Positions 22,945-54,741 of a stretch of DNA of 64,000 nucleotides are shown one piece after another. This stretch comes from Trypanosoma brucei (lineage: Eukaryota): positions 608,001-672,000 of the forward strand of contig CM000207.1 in the NCBI GenBank assembly GCA_000002445.1. Reading direction: 5' to 3'. Below the pieces are notes generated by a model that saw only the letters and a program-made list of their open reading frames with translations, ran no database searches and was not told the origin of the DNA. Each line of letters begins with the position of its first letter. The first letter of the stretch is position 1. Made by a program: the position numbers and the translations under genes.

Positions 22945-24645
22945 CTATTGCTTTTCTGTTCCCCCCCTGCTTTTGCAACTAGACTTCCGTGAAGAAGATC
23001 TCCGCTTCCTACGGCTATGGCTACGGCTACGGCTACGACTCTTTCTCTTTCTTCTCGGCTTGCCCTTTCGGCGTTTCTTCCTCGAAGGAGAACCCAGGCG
23101 CGTGCCTCTCGAACAGAGCGTAGGTCGCCGGCGGCCCATATGAGGGAACGTAGATGAAAGCTCGGGTGGTATAGGAGGACGCAGGAAGCCCATTGTCCCA
23201 AAGGAGAACCGACGTAAGTCCAGTGATGTAGGATTTACAATAGGAGGCAGGTTAGTACTGCCATTACCAAGCACATCAGCGCTTATCAGCCCATATTCTT
23301 CGCGGCGATCCACGTAGTGGTGGGTAAGTCTGTCGGAGCACGAACCGATATTGTATGTCTTATCATCGTAGCGAACAGGCAAGGTGTCTGTGTATTTGGG
23401 TACGACGGCACGCAGTGCGTCCTCGGTTACTTCATCATCATCAGAACTGTCTCCTTCTGCGACGAAAAGGTTAACCGCAGACCGGCCAACACTATATTGG
23501 CGTCTTCCCTCTCGTTTCACCCGTGGTATATTGCGAAGCAGATCATCTGGTGCAAGGCTGTCGGTAAATGGAGTTGGACTCTTCTCGCGCAGGTGATCAG
23601 CATCGTCTATGTAGTCGTCAAAAGAATCCATGCTCTCACTATCATGGTCAGCGGCTGAATGGCTGAGAAAGCGAAGGAAGTCAAACGTGTAGTTGGCAGG
23701 ATCCACAAGCCCTCGGGATTGGAGAGCCTTTACGACACCCTTGACGTCCTGCTGCACCAGAGTTTCTCCAAGTCGAACGAGCTCCCAAGCACTCTCAGAA
23801 CAGTTTTTCCTTTTGCGTACCATCAGCACAATGCATGAATTATGCCCCACAGTCGTCACTTGCACGGGAACAATTGCTAAGGGAAGTCTTTCATTTGCCT
23901 TTTTTACCGCATAATACACTCCTGTCGCTTCGCAGAGGGGCACCTCTTTCGTAAATAAAGTGGAGCACAAAGAAAAACCGGCGCACATCGACACTTTCTT
24001 CAAGTTTGCAACGACAGTATCACCAGCCACCACCTTCGGACCACCAGCAGGTTCGAGGAAGTTGTCTGAAACTTTACAAGCAGTGTCAACAGAAACCACA
24101 TCGTGCGCCCTATGCAGGAGGCCTTTATCATTCGTCATCCTTCGCCCGACGCCAACATAATCAATCTGTCTCCCATGTTCTCTAAAAAGACAAGCTGTTG
24201 TGTCGAAAAATAATAATGGTTTACCGTCCTCAGGCAAGGGACGATAAAGGGTTATCTCAAGCTCGGTGACGTGACTGCTGATGAGTGAAGATTCGCCTTC
24301 TCCAAGAACTGGAACTGGAGATATCGCCCCTTCGGGGGAGTTAGTTCCTGACTCTGACGAAGTCATCCCCGCTTTGCTCACTTTCCTGACCGAGCCGCGT
24401 CGCTTTCCACGCCTCGACCCGGTCCGAGAGCGACGAGACGAACGACGAGACGAGCGGCGTCGCCTACCCTTTGATTTACTTCTCCGGCCACCTCTACGTT
24501 TTGTTTTAGATTTACTTTTTGATCTCCTCCGCCTCTGGCGCGGGGAACCCGCTCTCGAACCTTTTCTCGTTGGTGGCCCAGTGGGAATCTTTGTCCCACT
24601 CAGCGTCCCGGCTAAGCTCCGATCCTCGTCACTACCAAGATCCAT
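22945..24645 (-). CDS. Arg/Ser-rich (RS-domain) protein with RS/RK tracts at both termini
   Basis: True ATG at 24645..24643. N-terminal RRRRSKSKSKTKRRGGRRSKSKGRRRRSSRRSSRRSRTGSRRGKRR and C-terminal RKRRKGKPRRKRKSRSRSRSHSRRKRRSSSRKS flank a unique central globular region of about 350 aa. This resembles SR-related splicing/RNA-processing factors. Confidence 0.55.
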   Translation of the reverse strand: MDLGSDEDRSLAGTLSGTKIPTGPPTRKGSRAGSPRQRRRRSKSKSKTKRRGGRRSKSKGRRRRSSRRSSRRSRTGSRRGKRRGSVRKVSKAGMTSSESGTNSPEGAISPVPVLGEGESSLISSHVTELEITLYRPLPEDGKPLLFFDTTACLFREHGRQIDYVGVGRRMTNDKGLLHRAHDVVSVDTACKVSDNFLEPAGGPKVVAGDTVVANLKKVSMCAGFSLCSTLFTKEVPLCEATGVYYAVKKANERLPLAIVPVQVTTVGHNSCIVLMVRKRKNCSESAWELVRLGETLVQQDVKGVVKALQSRGLVDPANYTFDFLRFLSHSAADHDSESMDSFDDYIDDADHLREKSPTPFTDSLAPDDLLRNIPRVKREGRRQYSVGRSAVNLFVAEGDSSDDDEVTEDALRAVVPKYTDTLPVRYDDKTYNIGSCSDRLTHHYVDRREEYGLISADVLGNGSTNLPPIVNPTSLDLRRFSFGTMGFLRPPIPPELSSTFPHMGRRRPTLCSRGTRLGSPSRKKRRKGKPRRKRKSRSRSRSHSRRKRRSSSRKSSCKSRGGTEKQ

Positions 24646-26722: not shown

Positions 26723-27313
26723 CTAGTTACTGATTTTGTTCCCATCCTTGAAAATCTCAGGTCGTTCAATGACAGCAGGTGTCTGGAACACATGATCTGG
26801 TATCTCCGCTCCACGATAAAGCGATTCGAGAAGCGAGGCGGCACCTCGGGGAGTGGCCTCCCACTTCATGGTCTCCAGAAGGGACTTTGCCAAAAAATCC
26901 ACGAGCTCAATGTGTGGTATAACCACCTTTGCATAATCGTCATCAGGGTCAGCAAATGCCTCGAGGTGGTGTCCATCCATCTCAACAGTAAGTTGTCCAC
27001 CTTTGTCATCAAGGATTGGGTAAGCTGTGAGGCTGTAACACTTCAATAGTCGATGTGGGTCACCCAAGTGAGGTGGAAGAAACACCCGAATGTATGTCTT
27101 GTTTTCTTTGGCAACTTCACCTAATCGACGCAGAACATCGGCATCACGAGGATCCATCGTCGAGGCGTACTGACTTCTGATGCGGTCATTTACTTCGGGC
27201 TTGCGAAGCATGCAGCTGAAAATTGTGTCCAACGCCGCATTATCCCAACCTTTCCCAAAGAAGTTACGACTCAAAGGCACAGTTGCCAAAAATGGTGTGA
27301 CAAAGCGCTTCAT
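26723..27313 (-). CDS. conserved hypothetical protein (196 aa), possibly organellar
   Basis: True ATG at 27313..27311. The N-terminus MKRFVTPFLATVPLSRNFF is basic and hydroxylated like a mitochondrial presequence. It is the first gene of the minus-strand cluster next to the strand-switch region. No family recognised. Confidence 0.5.
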   Translation of the reverse strand: MKRFVTPFLATVPLSRNFFGKGWDNAALDTIFSCMLRKPEVNDRIRSQYASTMDPRDADVLRRLGEVAKENKTYIRVFLPPHLGDPHRLLKCYSLTAYPILDDKGGQLTVEMDGHHLEAFADPDDDYAKVVIPHIELVDFLAKSLLETMKWEATPRGAASLLESLYRGAEIPDHVFQTPAVIERPEIFKDGNKISN

Positions 27314-28304: not shown

Positions 28305-31300
28305 TCAGTCAGGAGCTCAACACCACAGGGGGGGTACTCATCTCCCACATCATCGATGTTACGATTACCCTCTAAATAAATCCACATAATGTGGCAAAAA
28401 AAACCCTTCTACATAGACTAGAAACGTAAGCAGGTAACGGGAAACAATACTAAGAACATCCTTTGTAAGGAAAAGGAAAACGCAAACATCCCATAGACAA
28501 GAGCCAGGAATCACTGCGTATTTATTAGCATCCCGTGGGCACCCACAAACTGTACGCCGCAAGCAGTAAATTCCACATAATTAAGGTCAAAGTAATGTCA
28601 CTGTAGCGTCAGCTGCACCTTGCTTACCCTTTTAGGTGCCGCCAATAAGCATACCACTTGGACTACCAGACGATGAAAAGTTAGGTGCCCGCCGGCAAAC
28701 CAATACCAAAAATTAATAACAGTAATGATAACTTTCATAAGGGTGGGACCATGTTGTAGGTATGGACGGCATGCCCCACATGGCAACAAGTGAATATACA
28801 CCAACGCCAAATACCAAATGCACAACCTCAAGTTATCATCAAAGAAAAATATTAATATGGGCGGGAAATGACCAGCCTGACATGGGTTGCACTGGCCAGA
28901 GCGCCTCACCAACCAGTCAAAAGGCATATGGCGGGGGCAAGACACTTTCTATCTGTTACTACCCGAATATGCTCACAAAAGCAATGACATCACACAGAGC
29001 CACACTCTCTCTCTCTCGCCCTCCTTGTCTCGGTTGAAGGAGAAGCGTAGCGGGCCGTACCACCTTAGCCGTTCCACGAATCACCTAAGCCAATCCATCA
29101 CAGCATTCAACTCCACACAACATGTAACTCCGGTTCAGATTATACGTACGCAACCCCACCCCAACCCGCTCATCACATAAATTTAAAATATTGCGGTGCA
29201 TCCTCGCCTCGGTTTCTCGAACAAAAACAAGCAACATCCGCAAAAACTAAACAAAGTAGAGGGACCAAATATGAAAAGGCATAGAATGCGTCGACCCTCA
29301 GCAGCCGTCTCGAAACTGTTGGTGCCGCACCACACACCACAACAACTGCAGCAACAACAACCGCATTCGCTACCCATGGGATAAGAGGGGGGAAATGAGC
29401 AGGTGGGAGCGTGTTCAGGAAATTCTCCACGGCGAGGTAGCCCCTGAGTAGCGACAACCCGAAGCAGAAAGACTTGGGAAGGGGTGGTCGAGCCACAGCA
29501 GTGGCAACCAATCGACGCGCACCGCCAGCATACGCCAGACGGGGAAAGGACTCCCACGCCACCCCGCATTACAAGCAGCGCCGCCACCACAGCGCCGCAG
29601 AAAATAAGGTAAAGTCAGGGGGGAAAACACTCCAACCAGCAACGCGGTACAAATTCCCATACCTTTACCCATGCAGGAGTCGCCAACGTGCCTCAACCCC
29701 CAATACCCCTCGTCAGGAATAGATTGAAATGGAAGAGTATGAAAATAATCTGTCGCGTGACGTCCAACAGTAGCGTTACGGTTCAAGAATGGACACCAGA
29801 ACCCCCTACCACGCAGTTGTGCCAAACACCCAACAAAAAACACAGTCCGGACGAAGTCACCTCGCACCGGCCATATGGAGGTGAGTCCCAGGCCTGCCCC
29901 GCCCAGCACTAAGCACAATGCTGCCCATCTCTCTTATACAGAACGAACAAGGTCAAAAAATGTGCAAACTGCGAAAAAAGCCATCTTCTCTACACCGAAA
30001 GGGCAAATTTCAACCGGTGGAAGAAAAACGACCCCATCCACCCCTCACAAGAGCACCGGCTGCCGGCTGTGACTCAAAGAGAAAAGGAATGCCCATCCTC
30101 TTTCTTGAACACACGGCGATAGTACTTACGTTGCGGCGTTTCGCCGCAAAAAACTTATCCGCACGTCACAGCACACAGCGCAGTTTCCCCGTCCCACATT
30201 CACATCCGGCCGCTTCCCTGCGCCCCAAAAAGGTTATCGCGGGACGACCGGACGACACCTACCCCTTGGTGTGCGCTAAGCCCGTCCCCTCAGTTGACGA
30301 CAGAGATTCTGCACTTTATTGGCGCGCGTTTGGTATCTGCAACGACAAAAAACGTGGTGGGGAACCCCCACCGCAATATTCATCAAAAAAAAAAAAAGCT
30401 GGCGTTGTACGCGACACAACTTGCTAATGGAACTACCCTGTTGCAAACCGAGTGCCACGGGCCACTAAGGACAATGAACGCCACACAACGTTATTTACTG
30501 TTTTGGTGTGTGCCGCAACTCCGAAGAGCCACCAATTTCACTGCAAATATCCTTAAGAGAATCATATCCGTGGAAACACGATAACTTGGGGAAGCCGAAA
30601 CTCATCACACAGGAGAAACTTGGAAATACTAAGGACTAGAGAAATACCCACAGCCATACCGACGCACAGCTGCAACAGTCATTCATGATGGACCGCCCGC
30701 CGCAGCCCGGTGGGTAGAACAATATCGGGGACCCTTGTTCCGTGACAATGGGGTTGGCCAAAATGGAGAATGAGACGGATGCTTCCGCAAGTAATATTGA
30801 GCGGAAACGCCATGCAGCACAGAGGCGAACGTCTTTATATGGCGGTGCTCGACTCCAACGGTGTCAAGAGAAACGTTACAAAATGAGTATATCCAATAAA
30901 AACGGCCTGAAACGTCAGCGGCCGAGTTTAGTACAGTGCTTCCAGGCAGCGACCGCCGGATTTGGAAACAGAACAACGAGGCAACACCATTCCACGCACC
31001 AGTTAGTGATGGCCTGCGCCACGATGCCATCAAAACGCTACAAACACGTACTGCGGGTATACCGAAGGGTAAAAACACTACTGGAATAAGATAATGGAAA
31101 AGGGTTAGTTCCTGTTGAAAACGAACAGCATAAATTCGTGCTAAGACTCTTGAGAACCCCCAGTAGTTCCTAATTCCCAACCCTTCTTGACGACAAACTT
31201 GGTGTGAGAATCACATCGCACCGAGGGAGAAGATGGGCAATTACTCCATAACTCCGAATATATCTGAAGGGTTAAATCCTGTCCCATCTCCTTCCCCGCC

Positions 31301-33599
31301 CGACACTGACCATTTCAAAGGTGATAGAAAGAGAAAACTGTGAGAACATATGGCGACAGGTGAAACGGTGAAAGTCCAAGCGGGGGTTTAGCCACGCCAT
31401 CCTCTTTATTGTTTGTTCCAAATCACCTCAAACAGCGAGCTAAATGAGGGGTGCGCAACAAATTCGCAAACATGGTGCATCAAGCTCACCTACTCTCTAC
31501 ACCGCCTTCTTTCCAACAGATCAAGTGGCAGCAGCTCAATTGGACGAATCTCCCCGACTCCAACAAGTATAGTTTAACAAAGGTTAAACAAAAAGCACAA
31601 TCCCAAAACTCTGCTGTTACTAGCCGCAACTGCTTTCTTTCCCAACCTACGTCCCCTACTGCGGAACTAAATCACCAAAATAGTTTCCTCCCTAACACCC
31701 AAGCGATAAGGAGCAAGGCTGCTAATGAATATGCGCCACGGAATGAGCGCCGCACCTACGAATAGGACACGTAAACACATTGGTAGACTCAAAAAAAAAA
31801 AAAGAGGCATATATAGTCCAGAAAATCCTTTCGAGCTACTGCGACCCTGACAAGCTCCGACAACCACGTCAAAGCAAAACTATATTCCTCTCGTCACCTA
31901 TTGACAATCCGAGGTTTGTAGCGTTCTGTTCACATCAGGAAAAAGAATATGGTCCTGCACTATTCAAAACGAAAAAGAGAAGGCTACTACCGACAAGGCT
32001 CCTCAGATTGAGAACTCCTTTCTCGACAGTGTGGGATTCAATAGCCCGAGCACTGCGTGCACCCCGACTCGGAGCGGCAGGGAAACGATCATGCAGGGAA
32101 TCGAGCACCGCCACATTTTCCCTCATTTTTTTGGAAGAATGCGGTGGGGTCACGACGGCAAGTAACCAACATGATCACAGGCGTGACGGGTGGAGAGAGC
32201 GGGGAAGATGCGGTTGAGTTGGCTCAGCTGATCATCGTTAGGGGTGTAGTTTGCAAGAGGGGAGTGGAATGTTACCTGAAATGGGAAGCCGTCGATTAAA
32301 CATTCAGTGAAGTCATAAGAAAAGCCGGACCTTCTGGACTACCCTATGCATAATGAGTTGGATGCTGCCAAGTGTTAGTGTAACAAAGTGGGGAAGACTT
32401 ACCGCAAAAGGAAAGCTTGGTGTGGATCGTTTTCGGGGTTGCAAGCACGGCCCTATCCCTCGAGTGGGCTGAGGGAAGATGCGCCGTGCGAAGAGAAAAA
32501 TAGAGGTGTCCGTTGCCATCCACCACCAAACCTGAACAGAAGGTTCTGCTGAATTGGATATGCCGAGCGGTGGAGAAACTTTCATATTTGATAAGGCAGA
32601 AAGACGGCTGAGTTACGCAGAAGGATCGGTAAGCTGCCACGTGACTTCCGAGGGGGGAGGGCTGCAATGAAGATTGTGCTTGAAAGGCCTCTAAGAGAAA
32701 CGGCATACAAGGCAAAGGGTGGGGTCCGGGTTAGAGACGTTCAACAAATTCGAACCGTCCCTCTTTTCTTTAAAGGCGGAACCAACACGTATAAAAGGTT
32801 ACGTCCTTCGCCCTATATGGAGAAGGGATCGGTGCAGCTCGTTAGGAATATGCCCCTATAAGTGCATTATGTTTTCTATTGCTCTAATTTTTATTGAAAC
32901 TAATTACCCGGCTACGGGGGCGGGTCTACAACCGGAACACCCTCCGTGCGGCACTAATACCGTGATATAGTTGTCGATTCAAAAGGCATCAGCGGTGAAT
33001 ACTTCAATTTTAACGCAGCAGTTTGAGGGCCGTCACGCACGGTATCAACGCTTTCTCTCATACCCCTTCTGCTAGGAAAGATATGGAAGCGGCGCGGAGA
33101 CAAGAGAAATTTCCCGCTTGGTTTTTCTTCTGGCGCAACGAAACGGTTCGGATGATATCTAGGATGGCTGAGCAACTGCATCAACCGAATGAGAGACGCG
33201 GTTGGTGCAGAATAGAGCAAATAATGAGGAGTCGCCGCCCCCTACACACACACACACATAATGTGAAGTTTAGTCGGAACAGCTCATACCTCGCGTGGTG
33301 GATAAACGTTTGGCGCCCAGTGATACGCCCGGGCAGTGATGCGGTATCGTTCCAGCGATTAACGTGGGTTGCTCATGCGACGGGGAAAAAAATCTGTAGA
33401 AAGGGTTGGACAAGGAACGAGTTGGAAAAACGCCTCAGAACGCGATGGGAATGTCGGGGATTGTGCATATCCTTTGTATGCGCGTGACTGTCCAGGACGC
33501 CCAAACACCCGAGAGTGCGCGCCATCAAACACAGAGGGGCGCTGCTATCCGAAACGAGCGACACCCAATGCGTGCACGTGTGGTTGTGTGGGAGAGCGC

Positions 33600-43271: not shown

Positions 43272-45125
43272 GTTCGAAACGATAGACAATGCGTATAGAT
43301 TTGTATATGAACAGGGGCTTTCCCTCTCGTCGTATCCACGACTGCCTCCAATGTACCCGGTAAGGGAACACAATTTTTGGTTATTTCACTGTTGTGGAGC
43401 GGCGCCATTTAGTTCGAAAATGTTCTCCCCCCCTGAATAAAATGCATGCATGTGTTAGCTGTAGTACCTCTCTCGTTATATTTTGGAATTTACAAGCGCA
43501 GACTTACGACCACCACCCGGAGCTTCCGTTTGCTATCATTCTGCGATGTGCATGCAACAACGGGCTTGCGATGCGTCACGTGTTGATATTGTCTCAACGG
43601 CTCAACTCTCTGGGTCCCTTTTTTCCACCACTGCAGCAAGTAGTTTTATGTCCTTGATTAACAGGAATCATGGGGCCACACCCTCTTTCCCACTCCCGCA
43701 CCGTTGAGTCGTTTCTGCAAGCTTGTTACGAACACTCTGTAGACAAACAAAGGGTGGTATGTAAACGTATATATGTACCCCGGGAGCGCGTGCTCGTCGA
43801 GATTCGGTGACGGATGGAGGTATCGCAGCTAACCAGTGGCGTTGTGTTCCCTTAGCGGGGGGCAAAGTAAAACATCACCGCGAGAGGTGGTTGGACTCGA
43901 GGTAGCTGGGGAGGCGCGGCGCTGGAAAAAAAAGAGATCGTAGTTTGAAGGAGGGGGTGCAGTGGACACGGCAGGTTCGGCGAGAGAGTTGGGTCCCTTA
44001 TTCCGTGTGGAAGAAAGGGAAGACTCTCAAATTGTTGTCACTACCTCCGTAATTATGCATCGGGACATTGCTGGGTTCACTAACACCGTCATTTTCCTCG
44101 GGCCAGGCTCAAAGAAAAGGGGGGGGTCGGAGATACGGTTGACGATAGCACTTGGCGGCAATTGTTTTGCAGGTTGCACAGCTAGTCAGCTTGGGTCCTG
44201 ACGTGATGTGGAAGTGTGTCCCTTTTGTCTGCCACCGGCGTGAGGTCTCAACGTGACCTCGGCAGCCGTAACCGTAGAAGTGGGCGAATCGGGTGGAAGT
44301 TCCGAGTACTTTTGTCGTTTCGCGGGTTCACTACAAGGGACAGGATTCGACGTCCGCGGGTTCGCTTCTCGTCGTGTCCTGCTGTTTTGCTCAAACGATC
44401 TTTTTCCTACGGGTTCACAAGGTTGGCTGTTGCCACTCCGTAGCTACCAGGAACGTCTGTTGCGTTAATGAAACTTCTATGCACCTTTGCGATGCAGAAG
44501 CTGAGGTGAATTGGCTTTGGATCTGGTTACGATCGTAACCCACCAAGGTGCCCGGTTGTACGTCGGCTGATTGCGCATCTGCGTCCCCGTCATTTACCTA
44601 GAGTTACTGTGTTACGTGAAAAAAAGAGAGCTGTAGTTTGTGCCCCTGCTGCGCGATGAATGAGGGAGCTTCCCGGATGGAGAAAGTATCGAGTGCAGCG
44701 CCAGTTGGAGGGGAGGGAAAACCTCATGATTTTGTTCATCCATTGAGAATACTTGTGCCGTAATAAATGCTCACGTTTTTTCGCCCCTCACTACGGAGTT
44801 TTTCATACTTCACTGCTGTTGATGTCCTTTGTCCGACTGTTTGTTGTTCTCGGCACCCATATTACGCGCGGTGGTGTCTATACTGTAACTGAGCCATGCA
44901 GAGGTGCAATTCATCACCTTGCAACTGGCTAATGTCCTCACCTTATCCACCCCGTCATCTCCCGTAGCCTTTGTTTTGCTCGTTCACCTGGACAAGGGCC
45001 GGCGGCTTCCTCTTAAAGTGAAACAAGTTGTAAAAAAAAAAAGTGATTGTATAACTCTTTGAAACTCAACTTTCTCTTTTGGCTGTGAAAGAAGGTCGTG
45101 CGCAGTGTTCTTTCAAACTTTAACC

Positions 45126-48100
45126 ATGGCCACATCTCTTGTGCAGTTGTATTGCTACGACCTCAGCGGAGGGATGGCGGAGTCCATGAGCCTCATGTTG
45201 ATTGGGCGCCATTTGGAAGCAATATGGCACACTGGAATTGTTGTGTATGGAAAGGAGTACTATTTTGACGGCGGGGTTGGCATTGTTCACTCCTCACCCG
45301 GTGGATCTCACTTTGGCACGCCAAAACGGGTAGAAACACTCGGTACAACAACGAAAGGCGAAGGCGAGTTTCTTGAATGGGTTAAGCAGCGAAGGCTTGA
45401 TACATTTGGCCCAACACACTACAATCTCCTTAACCGAAATTGTAACCACTTCACGCAAGCGGCAGCGCAGTTTCTCGTAGAGCGTGACATTCCTAGTGAA
45501 ATCCGCGATATGATTCCCACTGTGCTGGATACTCCCCTTGGCCGCATGCTTAAACCCATGCTGGAAATGGCCACCAGAGGCTTGGAAGCATCCGCAAAGA
45601 CATCACAACTTTCTACTTCACCGCGGAAGAAAGTATCAAACACCACTGAAACGCCCACTGTGAGTGATTCCTCTACCTCCCTCGACGTTGCAACTGGCCT
45701 GAACTCGGAGAAATCTCATCTCTCAGTGGAGGAGCATGAAGAAGTAATGCTTGTCCGTGCGATGCTGCAGAGTAATGAATTGCTCTCGTCAGGGACGCGG
45801 GAAGGCTTTAACACGACGATGGGAGCACTTATCCTGCTTCGGATGGTCATAACAAATATCCTGAGGAATCCAACTCAACTCAAGTACAGGACGCTTTCTA
45901 CTCAAGATAAGGAGTATAAGTCGAAAATAGCACCTCTGGAAGAGTTTGGTGCAGCCGATATACTGCGTCTCTGTGGGTTCCGTCTGTTGCAGCACCCGAC
46001 GTTGAATCAAGCTGTGTGGTTCCTGAGTGATGCGGACGGCAGTGAAGATGTTCTGGCCATAATGGTGACCCACATCACCGAGTTGATTGAGTTGGTGGAA
46101 AGTGAGTATCAATCAGAGTTTTGCGCAGTAGAGGGAGATCCAAATATAGGGACTTTCCATAAAGAAAAATACCCAGTTCCCCCCCTTACGTCAAACGCGA
46201 GTGATCCAGGGGACAGGGCAATGGAGGTCATAATGCACGACGCTGTGAAACCTATCTCTTCGCTTGAAGACTTGATGAATTGGTCCCCTACATCACCTGG
46301 AGCAATTACCCCAGCAGCGCCGTGTCGCCGCCGCGTGCAGGCCAGTGTGGAAGATGGTCCGAGGCTTTTAATTTGCCATGACATGAAGGGTGGTTATCTT
46401 CCAACTGACTACGAGCACTTCGCTGTCTGTAATAGACTGATGAAGGGTGCATCAGCTCTCGTCCCGTCGGTGGTGAATTGTAGCTATACGGTGAGTTACT
46501 GGCATCATGTGGACTACTTTGTTTACTTTTCGCACAACTTCGTTACGGTTCCCCCAAAGGAGTGGATCAGCTACGCCCACCGCGAGGGGGTTCCAGCCCT
46601 TGGAACGTTTATTACCGAAGGCGAAAGCTTAACTCTTCGCAAGATTCTACATGATGCCCAAAGTTCGGCGTCCACCATTAGGAAGTTGGTGGATTTATGT
46701 GATGCACACAACTTTGATGGATACCTTATGAATATCGAAACAAATTTAGATGAAACCCTTGCAAAGCGCTTGATAACGTTCGTGGCTACGTTAAAGAAAT
46801 CCCTCAACAAATCGCGACCGCCTAACTCTGGGGAGCGCTTTGTATTCTGGTACGATGCTGTCACTGTGGAGGGAATCGTTTCGTATCAGAACGGTCTAAC
46901 GTCCAAGAATAAGCCCTTTTTTGATGTCTGCAACGGCTTGTTCACAAACTATGGCTGGAGACCGTACAGTCTCCCTTTATCCACTGCGATTGCGGGGCAA
47001 AGAAATCGCGATGTGTTTGTTGGTGTTGACATATTTGGCCGTGGTGTCTACGGAGGCGGAGGATACGATAGCCATAAAGCTGCAGACTGTGCATCTGGTG
47101 CAAAGCTTTCCATTGCCATTTTCGCGCCTGGTTGGACTTCTGAATGCGTAGGAAATGGCTGTCGCGAAAATTTTCAGCGTAACGACGCGCACATGTGGAG
47201 TAAAATGCAGGATATATGGACTACCAAGTATCTTGAGTTGGACACTTTGCCGGTATGGACGTGCTTCCTTGACGAAGTTGGAACACAATTCTTCGTGAAT
47301 GGAGCTCCCGTTTTGGGTTGCGTTTCCAATCAAAATAGCCTTGGAAGCGGTGTAAAGTGCAGTAATGATGACACTGATTTTTTTTTCCCTGAGTGGTGCC
47401 AAATTTCACAGACACACATAAAGCCTTGTTACAAGCTGGTGCGCGGTGGGGCGGAGGGGGATCCATGGTGTGTGCTGCCGTTCGAAGTGGTGGGTAAAGA
47501 TGGGTGCCACACCAATAAAGATGGACAGACTGTGCCCCTCGATTGGTCGACAAAACAGGTGTGGATGGGTAACCGTAGCATGAGCTTCGCCGCTCCGCCA
47601 AACGCTACCGTTCCACTTATGCGATGGAAGGTACGTCTTGAAGTCGGAGCAGCTGACGGTGAGAAGACGTCCGACGCGCTGGCGTTCCTTGACATTGCCT
47701 GGTTGTGTAACGCCGTAGATGCGCAAGCGCACTCCGTGCGCTGCGTGTGTGTCGAGGGTGTAAATGGCTCTTCCACGACACGGGTCGTGTTTGACGAGCA
47801 GCTTGCATCCCCAGAGAGAATAATTGTCGTAGCAACTGTGGGAAATTGGCAGATTGTTCGTTACGTAATTCCGGACAACGTTACATGGACGCACGTCACT
47901 TGTTTGTCGATACTAAACCCCTCTGAGAATGAATCACTTGTTTGCACTGTGGGTGGCGTTGCCCTGACTGAGCCGACATACGATAATTCCACCAGTGTGT
48001 TGCTTTTGGGGGATGCACAAATCTTGCCCTCAACTTCGTATACGGTGGACAAAACATCAGACCCAACCACATGCGTAGTCACACTTGACGTGCCGAATGA

Positions 48101-48281
48101 ACTGAGAAAAAAATCAAACAAGGTCATTCTGTTCGCGAAAATTGGGTTTCCGGGTGGAAAACTTCTGAGTGCGTACTTGGGAACGCATGAGATATCGAAG
48201 CAAATTCTGTTACCGTTGAATATACCGTCTGATGCTTTTGTTTACGAAATGTTCTTCTATGGATCAGCTTCTGGAAACTAA
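45126..48281 (+). CDS. three-domain protein: N-terminal PPPDE/DeSI papain-fold peptidase, central PUB (p97-binding) domain, C-terminal GH85 endo-beta-N-acetylglucosaminidase (ENGase)
   Basis: The first ATG is at 45126; the track start at 45105 is GTG. PPPDE: catalytic His context WHTGIVVYGKEYYFDGG and catalytic Cys in YNLLNRNCNHFTQ. PUB: NPTQLKYRTLSTQDKEYKSKIAPLEEFGAADILRLCGF. GH85: LICHDMKGGY and the catalytic N-x-E in DGYLMNIETN (compare human ENGase DGWLINIEN). Confidence 0.8.
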   Translation: MATSLVQLYCYDLSGGMAESMSLMLIGRHLEAIWHTGIVVYGKEYYFDGGVGIVHSSPGGSHFGTPKRVETLGTTTKGEGEFLEWVKQRRLDTFGPTHYNLLNRNCNHFTQAAAQFLVERDIPSEIRDMIPTVLDTPLGRMLKPMLEMATRGLEASAKTSQLSTSPRKKVSNTTETPTVSDSSTSLDVATGLNSEKSHLSVEEHEEVMLVRAMLQSNELLSSGTREGFNTTMGALILLRMVITNILRNPTQLKYRTLSTQDKEYKSKIAPLEEFGAADILRLCGFRLLQHPTLNQAVWFLSDADGSEDVLAIMVTHITELIELVESEYQSEFCAVEGDPNIGTFHKEKYPVPPLTSNASDPGDRAMEVIMHDAVKPISSLEDLMNWSPTSPGAITPAAPCRRRVQASVEDGPRLLICHDMKGGYLPTDYEHFAVCNRLMKGASALVPSVVNCSYTVSYWHHVDYFVYFSHNFVTVPPKEWISYAHREGVPALGTFITEGESLTLRKILHDAQSSASTIRKLVDLCDAHNFDGYLMNIETNLDETLAKRLITFVATLKKSLNKSRPPNSGERFVFWYDAVTVEGIVSYQNGLTSKNKPFFDVCNGLFTNYGWRPYSLPLSTAIAGQRNRDVFVGVDIFGRGVYGGGGYDSHKAADCASGAKLSIAIFAPGWTSECVGNGCRENFQRNDAHMWSKMQDIWTTKYLELDTLPVWTCFLDEVGTQFFVNGAPVLGCVSNQNSLGSGVKCSNDDTDFFFPEWCQISQTHIKPCYKLVRGGAEGDPWCVLPFEVVGKDGCHTNKDGQTVPLDWSTKQVWMGNRSMSFAAPPNATVPLMRWKVRLEVGAADGEKTSDALAFLDIAWLCNAVDAQAHSVRCVCVEGVNGSSTTRVVFDEQLASPERIIVVATVGNWQIVRYVIPDNVTWTHVTCLSILNPSENESLVCTVGGVALTEPTYDNSTSVLLLGDAQILPSTSYTVDKTSDPTTCVVTLDVPNELRKKSNKVILFAKIGFPGGKLLSAYLGTHEISKQILLPLNIPSDAFVYEMFFYGSASGN

Positions 48282-50487: not shown

Positions 50488-51204
50488 TTAGAGGTGCTTT
50501 AGAAACTGTAGACGGGGAAAGTGAGATAGGGAAAAGATGGGAGTGTTGTTATGCGGAGAATTTCTTTGACAGCCTTCGTCCTGACCCGGCTTGCCAAGCT
50601 TTTCATTTTCTCATCTAATGTGCATGTCTTGGAAATCGCTCTCGGTTGGCGGCCCGTCCTTTCTAAACTTCTTCTTTTCACGTGCTTCAACCCCCCCTTT
50701 CTGTCCCTTCCTGGCTTCATGCTCACACAGGGTCGACGGCCCTCTTGTACATAAAGCGTCACGGGTGGAACTAATGTGTTTCTTTCTTTGAGCAGGTTTG
50801 TCAACTGTTGCGTCCCCTCTGGGAGGTGGAAACTGCAGAAAGCCATCAGAAGGAGAAGGGACAATGGACGAGAGTGCGGGGGGGGGGGAGAAATAAAAGT
50901 GTGTATGCGCAATGAGGCGGATAGAAGGACTGAAAAGGGATCCATTGGGGAAGGGGGCATCGTTTACTGTTTCCACGGAGTGATGTAAACCTCACAAGAT
51001 ACTTTGGGTCTTGTGTGTGGGAGCGTATGTATAAATAACTCGATTGGTGGCACATTCAGCAGGTCCACTACTATTAATCGCAGGGTGATTTATCCTGTTC
51101 ACACAACGCGCCCCTTACTCTCGTTCCCTTGCCTACCAACCCCATCTTTTCGTTTTTTTGCGTGTGCACCGCACGCGCGGAAGTCCTTCTTTTGCATTAC
51201 CGGG

Positions 51205-53595
51205 ATGGGAAGGAAGGATGACGCCATTAAAAAGTTAATATCGCTTAATTTTAGTAAAAGCAAGGCAACAGAAGCACTTAAGGAGGCTAATGGAGACTTT
51301 GACGTTGCCCTGAGAATTTTGCAGAACAAAAAAGTGAAAGAACAACAGGTTCCGGTGAAATCATTGGCAGAAAAGCCAAAGTTGAGCGGTAATGATGACC
51401 GCGTGGGTGACGGTGGTGAGGTGAAGCAAAGGAAACACCCGTGTATAGTGCAATACAAAAAATGCCAATATGGAAAGTTCTGTCGACTTCGTGACTACCC
51501 GGGTGATGTCTGCATCAACTACTTCAATGGTACTTGCTTGTATGGAAACTTCTGCAAGAGACGACACTATGTTGATGGAGTAGACATACGGGCCGACCAA
51601 CGTCCGGAGACAAGTAGTGGAATAGTTAAGCACCAGTCGGGCACCATCCGTATATCCAGGTCATGTGGCAATGGGGTGTTTGTTGGGGATGTGATACAGT
51701 GTGTTGACGAGGAATCGTCTTCCCAGCTTGCCGGTGCAACTCCTGAGCCATGCCGCTTTAATCTCATCCAGGGCTCGGAACCTACGTATACGGATCCCAG
51801 AGCTCTAGATTGGCAGTCGCGTGCTACTTCCGTCATCGGTACCACCCCAACTCCATTCTTGGATGCAGTAAGGCAAAATGCGCAGAAACAGGCTTTCGAA
51901 GAGGTCGCACCAACCTCTCCCGTCCCACTTTCAGTAACTTCTAGGGCTATCTCAAGGAATAAACACCCCTGTATAGCGCAGCGCGGTTGCTGTAAATACG
52001 GAAAGAACTGCCTTCATGCAGACAGGGACGCAGACGTTTGCGTGTTCTTTCTGAACGGAAGATGTGCGAGGGAAGGTTCCTGCAAGTACCGACATGAAAG
52101 CGATGCGGAATATTTGAGACGTGTTCGACCTGATTTATGGGGTGGAGGCTGCGATGACGCTAGCCAAGGCGGCGAGACGGTACCACTAACCGCCGAGAAG
52201 GTGTTGAAGGATGTGACAAGAGCGCGGTGGTGTCAAGCTGATGATGGGGAGGTTAAGGATGGGGAAAGATACCAACAAACCGGTGTTTCCCTCTCGGATT
52301 TTCTTCCGACCGCGCGTGTGGACGACGCACCCGAGGGCGGTACCCAGCGGGGGGAGCACGATGAAGATTCGATGGCACCTGACCAAAGCGGGGACAATGA
52401 GTTTGCCTCGCTTCTGAGTTTGATTGATGCGTTCCCAAGCGCCGAACCATATTTGTTGCTGCACGCCCTTCGCTGCGCTGACGGTAATCCCCATTACGCC
52501 GCCGACGTCATAAACCGAGTGAGTAATATTGATTCCACTGAGGATATCGATCTTTGCTTCCTAGCAAGCCGCTTGGAAGACGAGGATGAGGAGAGAGAGG
52601 CCGCAATCCGGGACAAACACGAGTGGTTTCTCACACTCTGCACGCTGTTTCCAGGCGTAGACACACCGTCGATTCAAGCGGTGTTGGATCGATGTGGAGG
52701 GGAATACGGAGAGGCCTACGACATTTTGCTTTGCCAAAGTGGTTCAGTAACAGCGAAGGCTTATGGGACCGCCTGGAGCGGTAAAGTTAAGGGAAGCGAA
52801 GAGGCTCGCGTGGAGAAGTTGTGCGGCATGTACCCGGGACTTCCCAAGGACGTGGTACAGAATGCCTTCGGGACTGCTGATGGCAATTTTCTCGTGGCAA
52901 GCGGTATATTGAATGATATGACCAAAGATATGTTGGTGGCGGGAGACGTTGTTGCTGATAGCCACCCCTGTCCGGCTCGCGGAAAGGTTGTTGTTACGAC
53001 GAAGCGAACGTCCGAAGAAGATGAACCGAAGAAGGTGTCGTTCCAGTTTCCGGTGAGCAGCCCATCACGCGAGGAAGTGGAGGCGTTTTACAACAGTGTG
53101 AAGAACGAGGTACGAGAGCTTGGTGATTGGCGACGGGTGCGAGAGCAGGCGTATATCATCAACAGTTGTCGTATCCGCGTGCTCAAGCACGCTGCAGCGG
53201 CATACCGACGTGGTGACGGCGAAGCCGCCAAGACTCTTAGTCGTCATGGGAAAGAACTTGGTGCCCAGTATCAGCGTCTCAACCGCATTGCGATGGTCGC
53301 ACTGGAGCGGGAGCGTCTGTATAGTAGCCCAGTCGTCACGCTTGACCTCCATGGCTTCCACGTTGAGGAGGCGATCGAGGTAGTGCGACGTCGTGTGAAG
53401 TTGTGCCAGCAGAAAGGTGTGAGGAACCTGCAAATTGTCACTGGCAGTGGCAAGCACAGCCGTGGCGGGAACTCTGCCCTTCACTCCGCAGTGCTGAAGC
53501 AGCTTCAGGAGGATACGCAACTAGACGGCATCGTTAAAATCGGGTCAATAAAACCTGCTTTTTTTGACGTTCAAATTGCACCGCGGCGTAAGTAA
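51205..53595 (+). CDS. UBA/CUE, tandem CCCH zinc-finger and Smr-domain protein (Cue2/N4BP2-like; candidate no-go-decay mRNA endonuclease)
   Basis: The first ATG is at 51205; the track start at 51004 is TTG. The N-terminal UBA is LISLNFSKSKATEALKEANGDFDVALRIL. There are two pairs of CCCH fingers (HPCIVQYKKCQYGKFCRLRDY...CINYFNGTCLYGNFCKRRH and HPCIAQRGCCKYGKNCLHADRD...CVFFLNGRCAREGSCKYRH). CUE-like segments include AEPYLLLHALRCADGNPHYAADVI and LFPGVDTPSIQAVLDRCGGEYGEAYDIL. The C-terminal Smr has TLDLHGFHVEEAIEVV and IVTGSGKHSRGG. Confidence 0.75.
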   Translation: MGRKDDAIKKLISLNFSKSKATEALKEANGDFDVALRILQNKKVKEQQVPVKSLAEKPKLSGNDDRVGDGGEVKQRKHPCIVQYKKCQYGKFCRLRDYPGDVCINYFNGTCLYGNFCKRRHYVDGVDIRADQRPETSSGIVKHQSGTIRISRSCGNGVFVGDVIQCVDEESSSQLAGATPEPCRFNLIQGSEPTYTDPRALDWQSRATSVIGTTPTPFLDAVRQNAQKQAFEEVAPTSPVPLSVTSRAISRNKHPCIAQRGCCKYGKNCLHADRDADVCVFFLNGRCAREGSCKYRHESDAEYLRRVRPDLWGGGCDDASQGGETVPLTAEKVLKDVTRARWCQADDGEVKDGERYQQTGVSLSDFLPTARVDDAPEGGTQRGEHDEDSMAPDQSGDNEFASLLSLIDAFPSAEPYLLLHALRCADGNPHYAADVINRVSNIDSTEDIDLCFLASRLEDEDEEREAAIRDKHEWFLTLCTLFPGVDTPSIQAVLDRCGGEYGEAYDILLCQSGSVTAKAYGTAWSGKVKGSEEARVEKLCGMYPGLPKDVVQNAFGTADGNFLVASGILNDMTKDMLVAGDVVADSHPCPARGKVVVTTKRTSEEDEPKKVSFQFPVSSPSREEVEAFYNSVKNEVRELGDWRRVREQAYIINSCRIRVLKHAAAAYRRGDGEAAKTLSRHGKELGAQYQRLNRIAMVALERERLYSSPVVTLDLHGFHVEEAIEVVRRRVKLCQQKGVRNLQIVTGSGKHSRGGNSALHSAVLKQLQEDTQLDGIVKIGSIKPAFFDVQIAPRRK

Positions 53596-53949
53596 CTGCC
53601 GCAAATATGGTATTACCAAGGACTTCACGCTTCATGGGACGGGGTCTCCTATAGGAGAAAATGGGGATTTACTTGATAAGTTTTTGTGCTGCCGCAGTGT
53701 TTGGCTCGGCGGAAAGAGGCTTCAATTGGAGGCCAACTAAGGGGTAAGGGTGTTATAGGGGGATGACTGGCGACTCTGACGCCGCCGACGGTAACTTGCA
53801 CTCTGTCCAATAATAAAATTGACTCATTTTATTGTTTTTTGTTGCTTTGCCGTGGTTGCCTGATTGTGTAGCTGTTTGGATTGAGCACTGTTGCTGGTGC
53901 GTAAAAAGGTTACTTTCTGCAGTGCCCAGAGGAGTGAAGAGGTGTTAGG

Positions 53950-54741
53950 ATGTCCACCAGCAGCCGCGGTATTTTGATTGCCGGGTTGACGAACCGTGCT
54001 CGAACACAGATGGCGGAGGGTATTCTCCGTCGACTGACAGCGGGAACCATATTTATAAAGAGCGGCGGTGTGCATCACGAGTCAACCATACATCCGCTTG
54101 CAGTTAAAGTCATGAAAGATATCGGCATTGACATTAGCAAACAGTCTGTGACGTCACTCGAAGCCGCACGCAGGCAACAGAACACGTACGACGTATACAT
54201 TAGCATTGACTGCAGTTACGAGCGGCGAACACTGGATAAATCGCAACCACCACGTGCGGAGGTTCGGCGTCGGGAGAGTTTCACCGTAGAATATGGAGAC
54301 GACGGTAGTGGTCCCAGAGGCGGCGATGACCCGGTGCGTTACGACCCGCTACTAGTTCCGCGCACCCCATCTCACTGGAGTGTTGGTGTTGACGCAACCG
54401 ACGTGCGGCGTCGCTGGCAGATATGGAGTCCCCGGGACCCCTCCATATTTCATGAAACCTCCACGCGGAAGTTTCAGGATCACTTATACGAAGGGGAGCC
54501 ACTCTTCATGCAGTTACGACAATGCCCTTGGAGAACTCAGGCGAAAGTTTCTGAGCGATGGGAGATGGATGAAGTGGCAATACGATATCCTGTGGAGCGT
54601 CATAGCGCACATGAGCTTCGTTTTGTGCAGGCGCGCGAGCAGCTGTTGCAGAGGTCTTTCGATCTGCTCACAAAACTTGAGAAGCATTATGGTGAAAGGC
54701 TCCTGCTTGACAGAGCGCTACTGGAGGAATTTATTTCATAG
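53950..54741 (+). CDS. ArsC/LMW-PTP-like protein with substituted catalytic cysteines (predicted pseudo-phosphatase/pseudo-arsenate-reductase), plus a ~170-aa unique C-terminal region
   Basis: True ATG. The N-terminal 90 aa align to B. subtilis ArsC (LMW-PTP fold): ILIAGLTNRARTQMAEG versus ILFLCTGNSCRSQMAEG, and SGGVHHESTIHPLAVKVMKDIGIDISKQ versus [27 protein letters not shown]. The P-loop Cys-X5-Arg nucleophile Cys is Gly and the second Cys is Ala; the Arg is retained. Confidence 0.55.
   Translation: MSTSSRGILIAGLTNRARTQMAEGILRRLTAGTIFIKSGGVHHESTIHPLAVKVMKDIGIDISKQSVTSLEAARRQQNTYDVYISIDCSYERRTLDKSQPPRAEVRRRESFTVEYGDDGSGPRGGDDPVRYDPLLVPRTPSHWSVGVDATDVRRRWQIWSPRDPSIFHETSTRKFQDHLYEGEPLFMQLRQCPWRTQAKVSERWEMDEVAIRYPVERHSAHELRFVQAREQLLQRSFDLLTKLEKHYGERLLLDRALLEEFIS

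Follow-up and report, generated by a model that had tools for sequence, protein, structure and literature searches.

One ArsC-like gene per species was reported in the TriTryp phosphatome survey of 2007 (Brenchley et al., PMC2175518), namely Tb09.160.2100, LmjF01.0200, and Tc00.1047053504797.120. The encoded kinetoplastid proteins cluster with bacterial arsenate reductases (ArsC), not with protein tyrosine phosphatases of low molecular weight (LMW-PTPs); their catalytic cysteine is replaced by glycine, two landmark cysteines are absent, the P-loop arginine is retained, and the group carries "two conserved long insertions" (PMC2175518). Either inactivity or an alternative catalytic mechanism was suggested in the same survey. 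A 2010 review (PMC2994645) described all kinetoplastid LMW-PTP/ArsC proteins as lacking the catalytic cysteine and predicted them to be inactive.

A protein of this fold class, mt-SAF26, is also known from assembly of the trypanosome mitoribosomal small subunit (mt-SSU). It is part of the body of the early mt-SSU assemblosome and is retained as far as the middle intermediate; with nine further mt-SAFs it covers the body's solvent-exposed side, blocking late proteins, and in the late intermediate those factors give way to mS42, mS43, mS47, mS48, mS60, mS61, mS64, and mS66 (Lenarcic et al. 2022). The same machinery includes mt-SAF35 (photolyase-like), mt-SAF36 (malonyl-CoA-ACP transacylase-like), and mt-SAF38 (hot-dog fold) (Lenarcic et al. 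2022). Like mt-SAF26, these are enzyme folds serving as trypanosome mt-SSU assembly factors, but the folds are different ones and the stages are others, on the intersubunit side of the middle and late intermediates. Cryo-EM studies from 2019 to 2025 established the place of mt-SAF26 in this machinery, and Saurer et al. 2019 (Science) and Lenarcic et al. 2022 are the references for its structures. No report of a knock-down of mt-SAF26 itself was found in the papers examined, Lenarcic et al. 2022 among them, and the Mettl15–Mettl17 paper makes no mention of mt-SAF26.

Identity and integrity of the gene

The analyzed window, a stretch of 64,000 nucleotides from Trypanosoma brucei (contig CM000207.1, positions 608,001 to 672,000), contains a complete coding sequence on the forward strand at window positions 53,950..54,741, running from ATG to TAG and encoding 263 amino acids, as given by the open reading frame list and by identity to PDB entries. 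A PDB sequence search returned, at E = 1.4e-178 and with 263 of 263 residues identical (100%), chain FW of 6SGA, 6SGB, 7PUA, and 9HNY, for which the entry name reads "mt-SAF26" and "LMWPc domain-containing protein", and the same mt-SAF26 chains were ranked top in Foldseek. The encoded polypeptide is the one present as a chain in the mt-SSU assemblosome (263/263). We infer that the gene is Tb09.160.2100, the sole reported T. brucei LMW-PTP-domain match, which lies on chromosome 9 and has the same features. Clustering with ArsC, cysteine loss, the kept arginine, insertions, and predicted inactivity of the kinetoplastid "ArsC" group (PMC2175518) all match mt-SAF26; the general-acid aspartate, however, is retained according to that survey, whereas a weak alignment here places an invariant glutamate, Glu216, at this site.

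The gene is that of T. brucei mt-SAF26, which very probably descends from an ArsC of bacterial type, has lost catalysis, and acts as a structural mt-SSU assembly factor. Both the inactive-site reading (2007, 2010) and the mitoribosome role are already published, and the finding is correct but not new. Its discovery value is little; mt-SAF26 stands as a clean textbook case in which an enzyme fold has taken on a structural role in assembly, and a modest remaining interest lies in the near-invariant oxyanion-binding P-loop residues of a protein incapable of catalysis.

The missing cysteines might be ascribed to a sequencing artefact, as the first-pass annotation had itself considered, or to a decaying pseudogene. 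However, T. b. gambiense DAL972 (FN554972.1) and GCA_003543875.1 encode the same 263-amino acid protein, and the coding sequence in the window differs from these two other T. brucei assemblies by 1–3 silent changes only. The codons of the substituted residues, GGG for Gly12 and GCT for Ala17, are each two base changes away from cysteine, and this distance, together with the agreement of three T. brucei assemblies, excludes a sequencing error. The substitutions are common to all homologues, the cryo-EM structures physically contain the protein, and no point in favor of an artefact or a pseudogene was found. The probability of either is close to nil, and for the mt-SAF26 gene this reading is already refuted.

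Upstream of the coding sequence, a candidate polypyrimidine tract with the first AG downstream of it can be read directly from the forward strand at 53,825..53,871; by analogy with general trypanosomatid mRNA processing, this is a possible trans-splice acceptor region of the mRNA.

Relationship to bacterial ArsC

Homology to LMW-PTP-type arsenate reductases had been proposed in the first-pass annotation from the motifs RTQMAEG and GIDIS, and it is borne out by Pfam, hhalign, and Foldseek. The Pfam LMWPc profile (PF01451), against which the initial annotation had suggested a search, scores 30 bits over residues 12–109 (E = 6.9e-7), above its gathering score of 23.2, and the protein is by this profile match a member of the family. 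Comparison by hhalign of a profile of 37 orthologues with a set of four ArsC sequences, three of which agree with PDB fragments, gave a probability of 98.9% (E = 1.7e-17) over 79 columns; the register of the N-terminal motifs comes from HMMER and hhalign, and the motif match is not spurious. The paired motifs are RTQMAEG in mt-SAF26 for RSQMAEG in ArsC, and DIGIDIS for EVGIDIS or EVDIDIS. Foldseek matched the B. subtilis and S. aureus ArsC structures with a probability of 1.00 and target TM-scores of 0.75–0.85, a range that also holds for 1JL3, 1JF8, and 8P5N. The four-stranded parallel β-sheet of the Rossmann-like fold characteristic of LMWPc members, with the P-loop between β1 and α1, is present as judged by the AF2 model and Foldseek.

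NCBIfam equivalog models for ArsC gave partial matches only, at 30–52 bits against cut-offs of 157–215. The best of these was the glutaredoxin-type model TIGR02689, the type of Synechocystis ArsC (2L17), at 51.9 bits against a cut-off of 157.6, and the thioredoxin-coupled model TIGR02691 (pI258 type) scored 36.2 bits against 174.3; the protein falls short of both. The fold is held in common with the thioredoxin-coupled enzymes of S. aureus pI258 and B. subtilis (1JF8, 1LJL, and 1JL3) and the glutaredoxin-coupled enzyme of Synechocystis (target TM-score up to 0.85), and bacterial ArsC and mt-SAF26 share RxQMAEG, GIDIS, and the asparagine and arginine of the P-loop. In contrast to bacterial ArsC, mt-SAF26 has lost all redox cysteines, carries an insertion of ~110 amino acids between β3 and β4, and scores well short of the equivalog cut-offs. 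Its place is in mitochondrial ribosome assembly in a eukaryote, whereas ArsC is a detoxification enzyme.

Loss of the catalytic cysteines and the degenerate P-loop

The degenerate P-loop, G12-L-T-N-R-A17-R18-T19 (53,983..54,006, forward strand), aligns with C-T-G-N-S-C-R-S of ArsC in the register given by hhalign and HMMER, in which G12 of mt-SAF26 pairs with C10 of ArsC, T14 with G12, N15 with N13, A17 with C15, R18 with R16, T19 with S17, and D87 with C82; the profile alignment contains no counterpart of ArsC Cys89 in mt-SAF26. By this register the first-pass alignment of GLTNRAR with CTGNSCR was right in its substitutions (Cys to Gly and Cys to Ala) and in its retained asparagine and arginine. 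Sixty-two homologues were aligned, 54 of which include the N terminus. Among these 54, position 12 is occupied by Gly (42), Ser (8), or Ala (4) and position 17 by Ala (50), Phe (3), or Ser (1), with cysteine at neither position in any sequence (0/54), and the substitutions are accordingly conserved in orthologues, a point on which the earlier reading had called for a check.

The dipeptide D87-C88 (54,208..54,213, forward strand) places Asp87 at the site of Cys82 in the pI258 and B. subtilis enzymes, with Cys88 one residue off register. Position 87 is Asp in 45 sequences and never Cys in the homologue column counts, and Cys at position 88 occurs in only 7 of 62 sequences, the named ones among them being Trypanosoma species. 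Following "YDVYISI", the T. brucei protein reads D-C-S, for which the counterparts in Synechocystis ArsC are C80-G-C82.

Gly12 thus stands where an active LMW-PTP or ArsC has the nucleophilic cysteine of the C-X5-R-(S/T) P-loop. The Cys82/Cys89 redox relay of thioredoxin-coupled ArsC is likewise lacking, with Asp87 in place of Cys82 and no counterpart of Cys89, and the protein also falls outside the glutaredoxin-coupled type, which is defined by Cys8/Cys80/Cys82 together with an equivalog score that exceeds the cut-off. Because Cys10, Cys15, and Cys82 are replaced and nothing corresponds to Cys89, mt-SAF26 would be incapable of phosphatase or arsenate-reductase chemistry that relies on thiols. 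The initial reading as a likely pseudo-enzyme with an ArsC/LMW-PTP fold has support and agrees with the literature of 2007 and 2010.

A "CRG" motif (residues 5–7, window positions 53,962–53,970) immediately precedes β1 in 42 of the 54 homologues, very divergent ones included; at its cysteine position (position 5), Ser is found in T. brucei and in a few further Trypanosoma species.

The protein could still be an enzyme that relies on another nucleophile, such as the serine found at position 12 of some relatives (8/54 sequences), the "CRG" cysteine with its wide occurrence (42/54), or Cys88, and an alternative mechanism is mentioned by Brenchley et al. (PMC2175518). However, T. brucei itself has Gly at position 12 and Ser at position 5, Cys88 is confined to 7/62 sequences, no candidate nucleophile is conserved family-wide, and the NCBIfam ArsC equivalogs score 30–52 bits where cut-offs are 157–215. 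A relocated nucleophile in the form of the "CRG" cysteine is unlikely, as this residue lies at the far end of β1 from the P-loop, and the proposal of an altered but active enzyme is as a whole very improbable.

Several residues of the P-loop are kept nonetheless: N15, R18, and T19 are each present in 53 of the 54 homologues and T14 in 51, while Arg is frequent at position 16 (24/54). On the basis of this conservation, the P-loop may plausibly have kept its anion binding. The site of the general-acid aspartate, which active enzymes carry in the D-P loop behind β4, falls on the invariant Glu216 in the ungapped register and on the variable Arg217 in the gapped HMMER alignment, the C-terminal alignment to ArsC being weak (HMMER conditional E ~0.002; hhalign probability 4%).

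Such a pattern brings to mind the STYX pseudo-phosphatases, in which the cysteine of CX5R is changed to glycine with the arginine kept, and which bind phosphorylated ligands without catalysis. The inactivating change is of the same kind in STYX and mt-SAF26; the fold class, in contrast, is that of dual-specificity phosphatases in STYX and of LMW-PTP/ArsC in mt-SAF26. The first-pass annotation had proposed a phosphate/arsenate-binding regulatory pseudo-phosphatase. In the manner of STYX, mt-SAF26 might be a pseudo-phosphatase whose intact P-loop takes up a phosphorylated partner, phosphate, or arsenate, and it might serve as a sensor or regulator, maybe within mitoribosome assembly. The near-invariance of the oxyanion-binding residues (N15, R18, and T19, 53/54 each; T14, 51/54) speaks for this, as do their persistence in the very divergent relatives P0064, P0071, and P0072 and the invariant E216 at the general-acid position of the ungapped register. 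However, neither a ligand nor binding data turned up, a structural role is the one published (Lenarcic et al. 2022), and the conservation could equally arise from folding of the β1–α1 turn or from protein–protein or rRNA contact; in addition, Thr14 in place of the ArsC glycine and the frequent Arg16 (24/54) are bulkier side chains that may alter the pocket. A regulatory phosphate binder is an unlikely reading, the protein being a stoichiometric structural part of the mt-SSU assemblosome and of the middle intermediate. Strict conservation of T14, N15, R18, and T19 exceeds the obvious need of a pure scaffold and hints at a retained ligand, and the near-invariance of these four residues and of E216 points, at rather low probability, to a phosphate or a specific contact still held by the pseudo-P-loop.

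Fold anatomy, the insertion, and relatives of mt-SAF26

The AF2 model of mt-SAF26 (mean pLDDT 75.9) comprises β1 (residues 8–14), α1 (18–29), β2 (36–42), α2 (49–57), β3 (82–87), β4 (200–205), and a last helix (218–247), with a long low-confidence stretch separating β3 from the high-confidence β4 and final helix. Residues 7–87 (53,968..54,210, forward strand) form the N-terminal half of the ArsC/LMW-PTP fold (β1, α1, β2, α2, α3, and β3), as indicated by LMWPc, hhalign, and pLDDT values of 85–97. The insertion that follows has two parts, both on the forward strand. The first, residues 88–133 (54,211..54,348; pLDDT 45–63), is variable in length and composition, with large indels between species. 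The second, residues 134–197 (54,349..54,540), with the pattern TPSHW..D..WSPRDP..STRKFQDHLYEGEPLF, is conserved more strongly than any other block in the family, and W143, D177, Y180, G182, and E183 within it are invariant in 62 sequences. The chain then returns to the ArsC fold (54,541..54,699, forward strand; AF2 pLDDT 92–96) with β4 (200–205), a loop containing E216, and the C-terminal helix (218–247), in which region E216 and R224 are invariant in the homologue alignment.

Foldseek alignments to ArsC structures of 121–139 residues extend over ~235 query columns, and residues 200–245 weakly match the ArsC C terminus by HMMER and hhalign, F225 and R229 pairing with F114 and R118 of the pI258 enzyme. 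As modeled, the ArsC fold extends over the full length of the protein, broken by the ~110-amino acid insertion between β3 and β4 (~88–199). The earlier domain picture is corrected in this respect: the "170-aa unique C-terminal extension" that it placed behind an N-terminal domain does not exist, the C terminus consisting of β4 and the last helix by the AF2 model, Foldseek, and the weak HMM and hhalign matches, and the protein consists of a single fold into which a large internal segment is inserted. Two candidates for the ArsC general-acid motif were considered within the inserted residues and rejected. "GGDDP" (123–127), as an equivalent of "DDP", belongs to the variable part, and orthologues do not conserve it; "WSPRDP" (159–164), as an equivalent of "WGFDDP", conflicts with the topology of the AF2 model and with the alignment of the C-terminal helix, both of which put β4 and the loop at 200–217.

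Insertion part 2 has low AF2 confidence in isolation, and the cryo-EM chains nonetheless model 238–247 of the 263 residues. Because confidence is low for the protein alone yet nearly the whole chain is modeled in the complex, the insertion is probably ordered by its partners. As published cryo-EM shows, mt-SAF26 is built into the mt-SSU body and kept to the middle intermediate; with nine other mt-SAFs it shields the solvent side, departing when late mS proteins occupy its place. The ~110-residue insertion, above all the invariant block 134–197, would provide the interfaces that hold mt-SAF26 in the complex, the ArsC core acting as a rigid scaffold. The TN..RT pseudo-P-loop may possibly still hold a small ligand or a phosphate, for example one in the backbone of the 9S rRNA.

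An exhaustive HMM search across 1.84 billion representatives returned 23 matches below 1e-30. Some 35 further proteins (to ~1e-16) match the N-terminal half together with the insertion and C-terminal part of the profile, and beyond ~1e-16 the matches are ordinary bacterial ArsC and LMW-PTP proteins that align over the N-terminal half only. Divergent relatives retain "TN..RT" and the "HW...FQD.Y.GEP" block, with no Cys at position 12; the P-loops of P0064, P0071, and P0072 read "LSRTNSFRT", "LGSTNHFRT", and "LSKTNTFRT", respectively. The divergent full-length relatives that were looked up (P0054, P0071, and others) come from environmental metagenomes or read assemblies. P0054 is encoded on metagenome contig Ga0609847_3839 (1–16,097) among twelve closely spaced genes on one strand, including those for a kinase, UDPGP, GPAT, and Dus, and this layout suggests an uncultured kinetoplastid-like eukaryote. 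Further protein searches with the family profile and with P0071 yielded essentially nothing new.

Because very divergent full-length relatives occur in metagenomes, the family with the insertion may predate trypanosomatids. A more far-reaching proposal joins this older origin to a pseudo-P-loop (T14-N15-x-x-R18-T19 plus E216) that works as a phosphate-recognition site, reading the maturation state and gating release of the factor; the phosphate so clamped would belong to a phosphorylated partner, to a nucleotide, or to the 9S rRNA, in its backbone or at its end. This combination is doubtful, and the structural role set out above is preferred.

Neighborhood of the gene in the window

The mt-SAF26 open reading frame sits within a run of same-strand open reading frames. 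Its neighbors encode an Smr/DUF1771 protein, a cyclophilin, a PPPDE-PUB-GH85 protein, and a protein with a weak cwf21-like match that does not reach the Pfam cut-off; they are functionally unrelated and provide no functional clue to mt-SAF26, as would be expected because trypanosome genes stand in polycistrons.

For the upstream neighbor (51,004–53,595, forward strand), the mechanical open reading frame starts from a TTG that lies upstream of the probable ATG; the protein is annotated with 789 amino acids in other assemblies, corresponding by offset to 51,226–53,595. It has a weak UBA-like match and, at the C terminus, DUF1771 and Smr domains, and several C-x-C-x-H zinc-finger-like motifs were spotted by eye in its translation. 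At 45,105–48,281 (forward strand), a 1058-amino acid open reading frame combines PPPDE/Peptidase_C97, PUB, and glycosyl hydrolase family 85 (ENGase) domains, which looks like an unusual fusion tied to deglycosylation and ubiquitin-like processing.

Between 24,000 and 28,000 of the window, local GC content is 0.41–0.43, as against ~0.50 elsewhere; one open reading frame of at least 150 amino acids starts there (26,723–27,313), and another (22,945–24,645) extends into the start of the stretch. Long open reading frames are all on the reverse strand up to ~31 kb and on the forward strand from ~33 kb, and the sign of the GC skew flips at 32 kb; the interval at ~31,200–33,000 looks like a divergent strand-switch region, that is, a start region of polycistronic transcription on a trypanosome chromosome.
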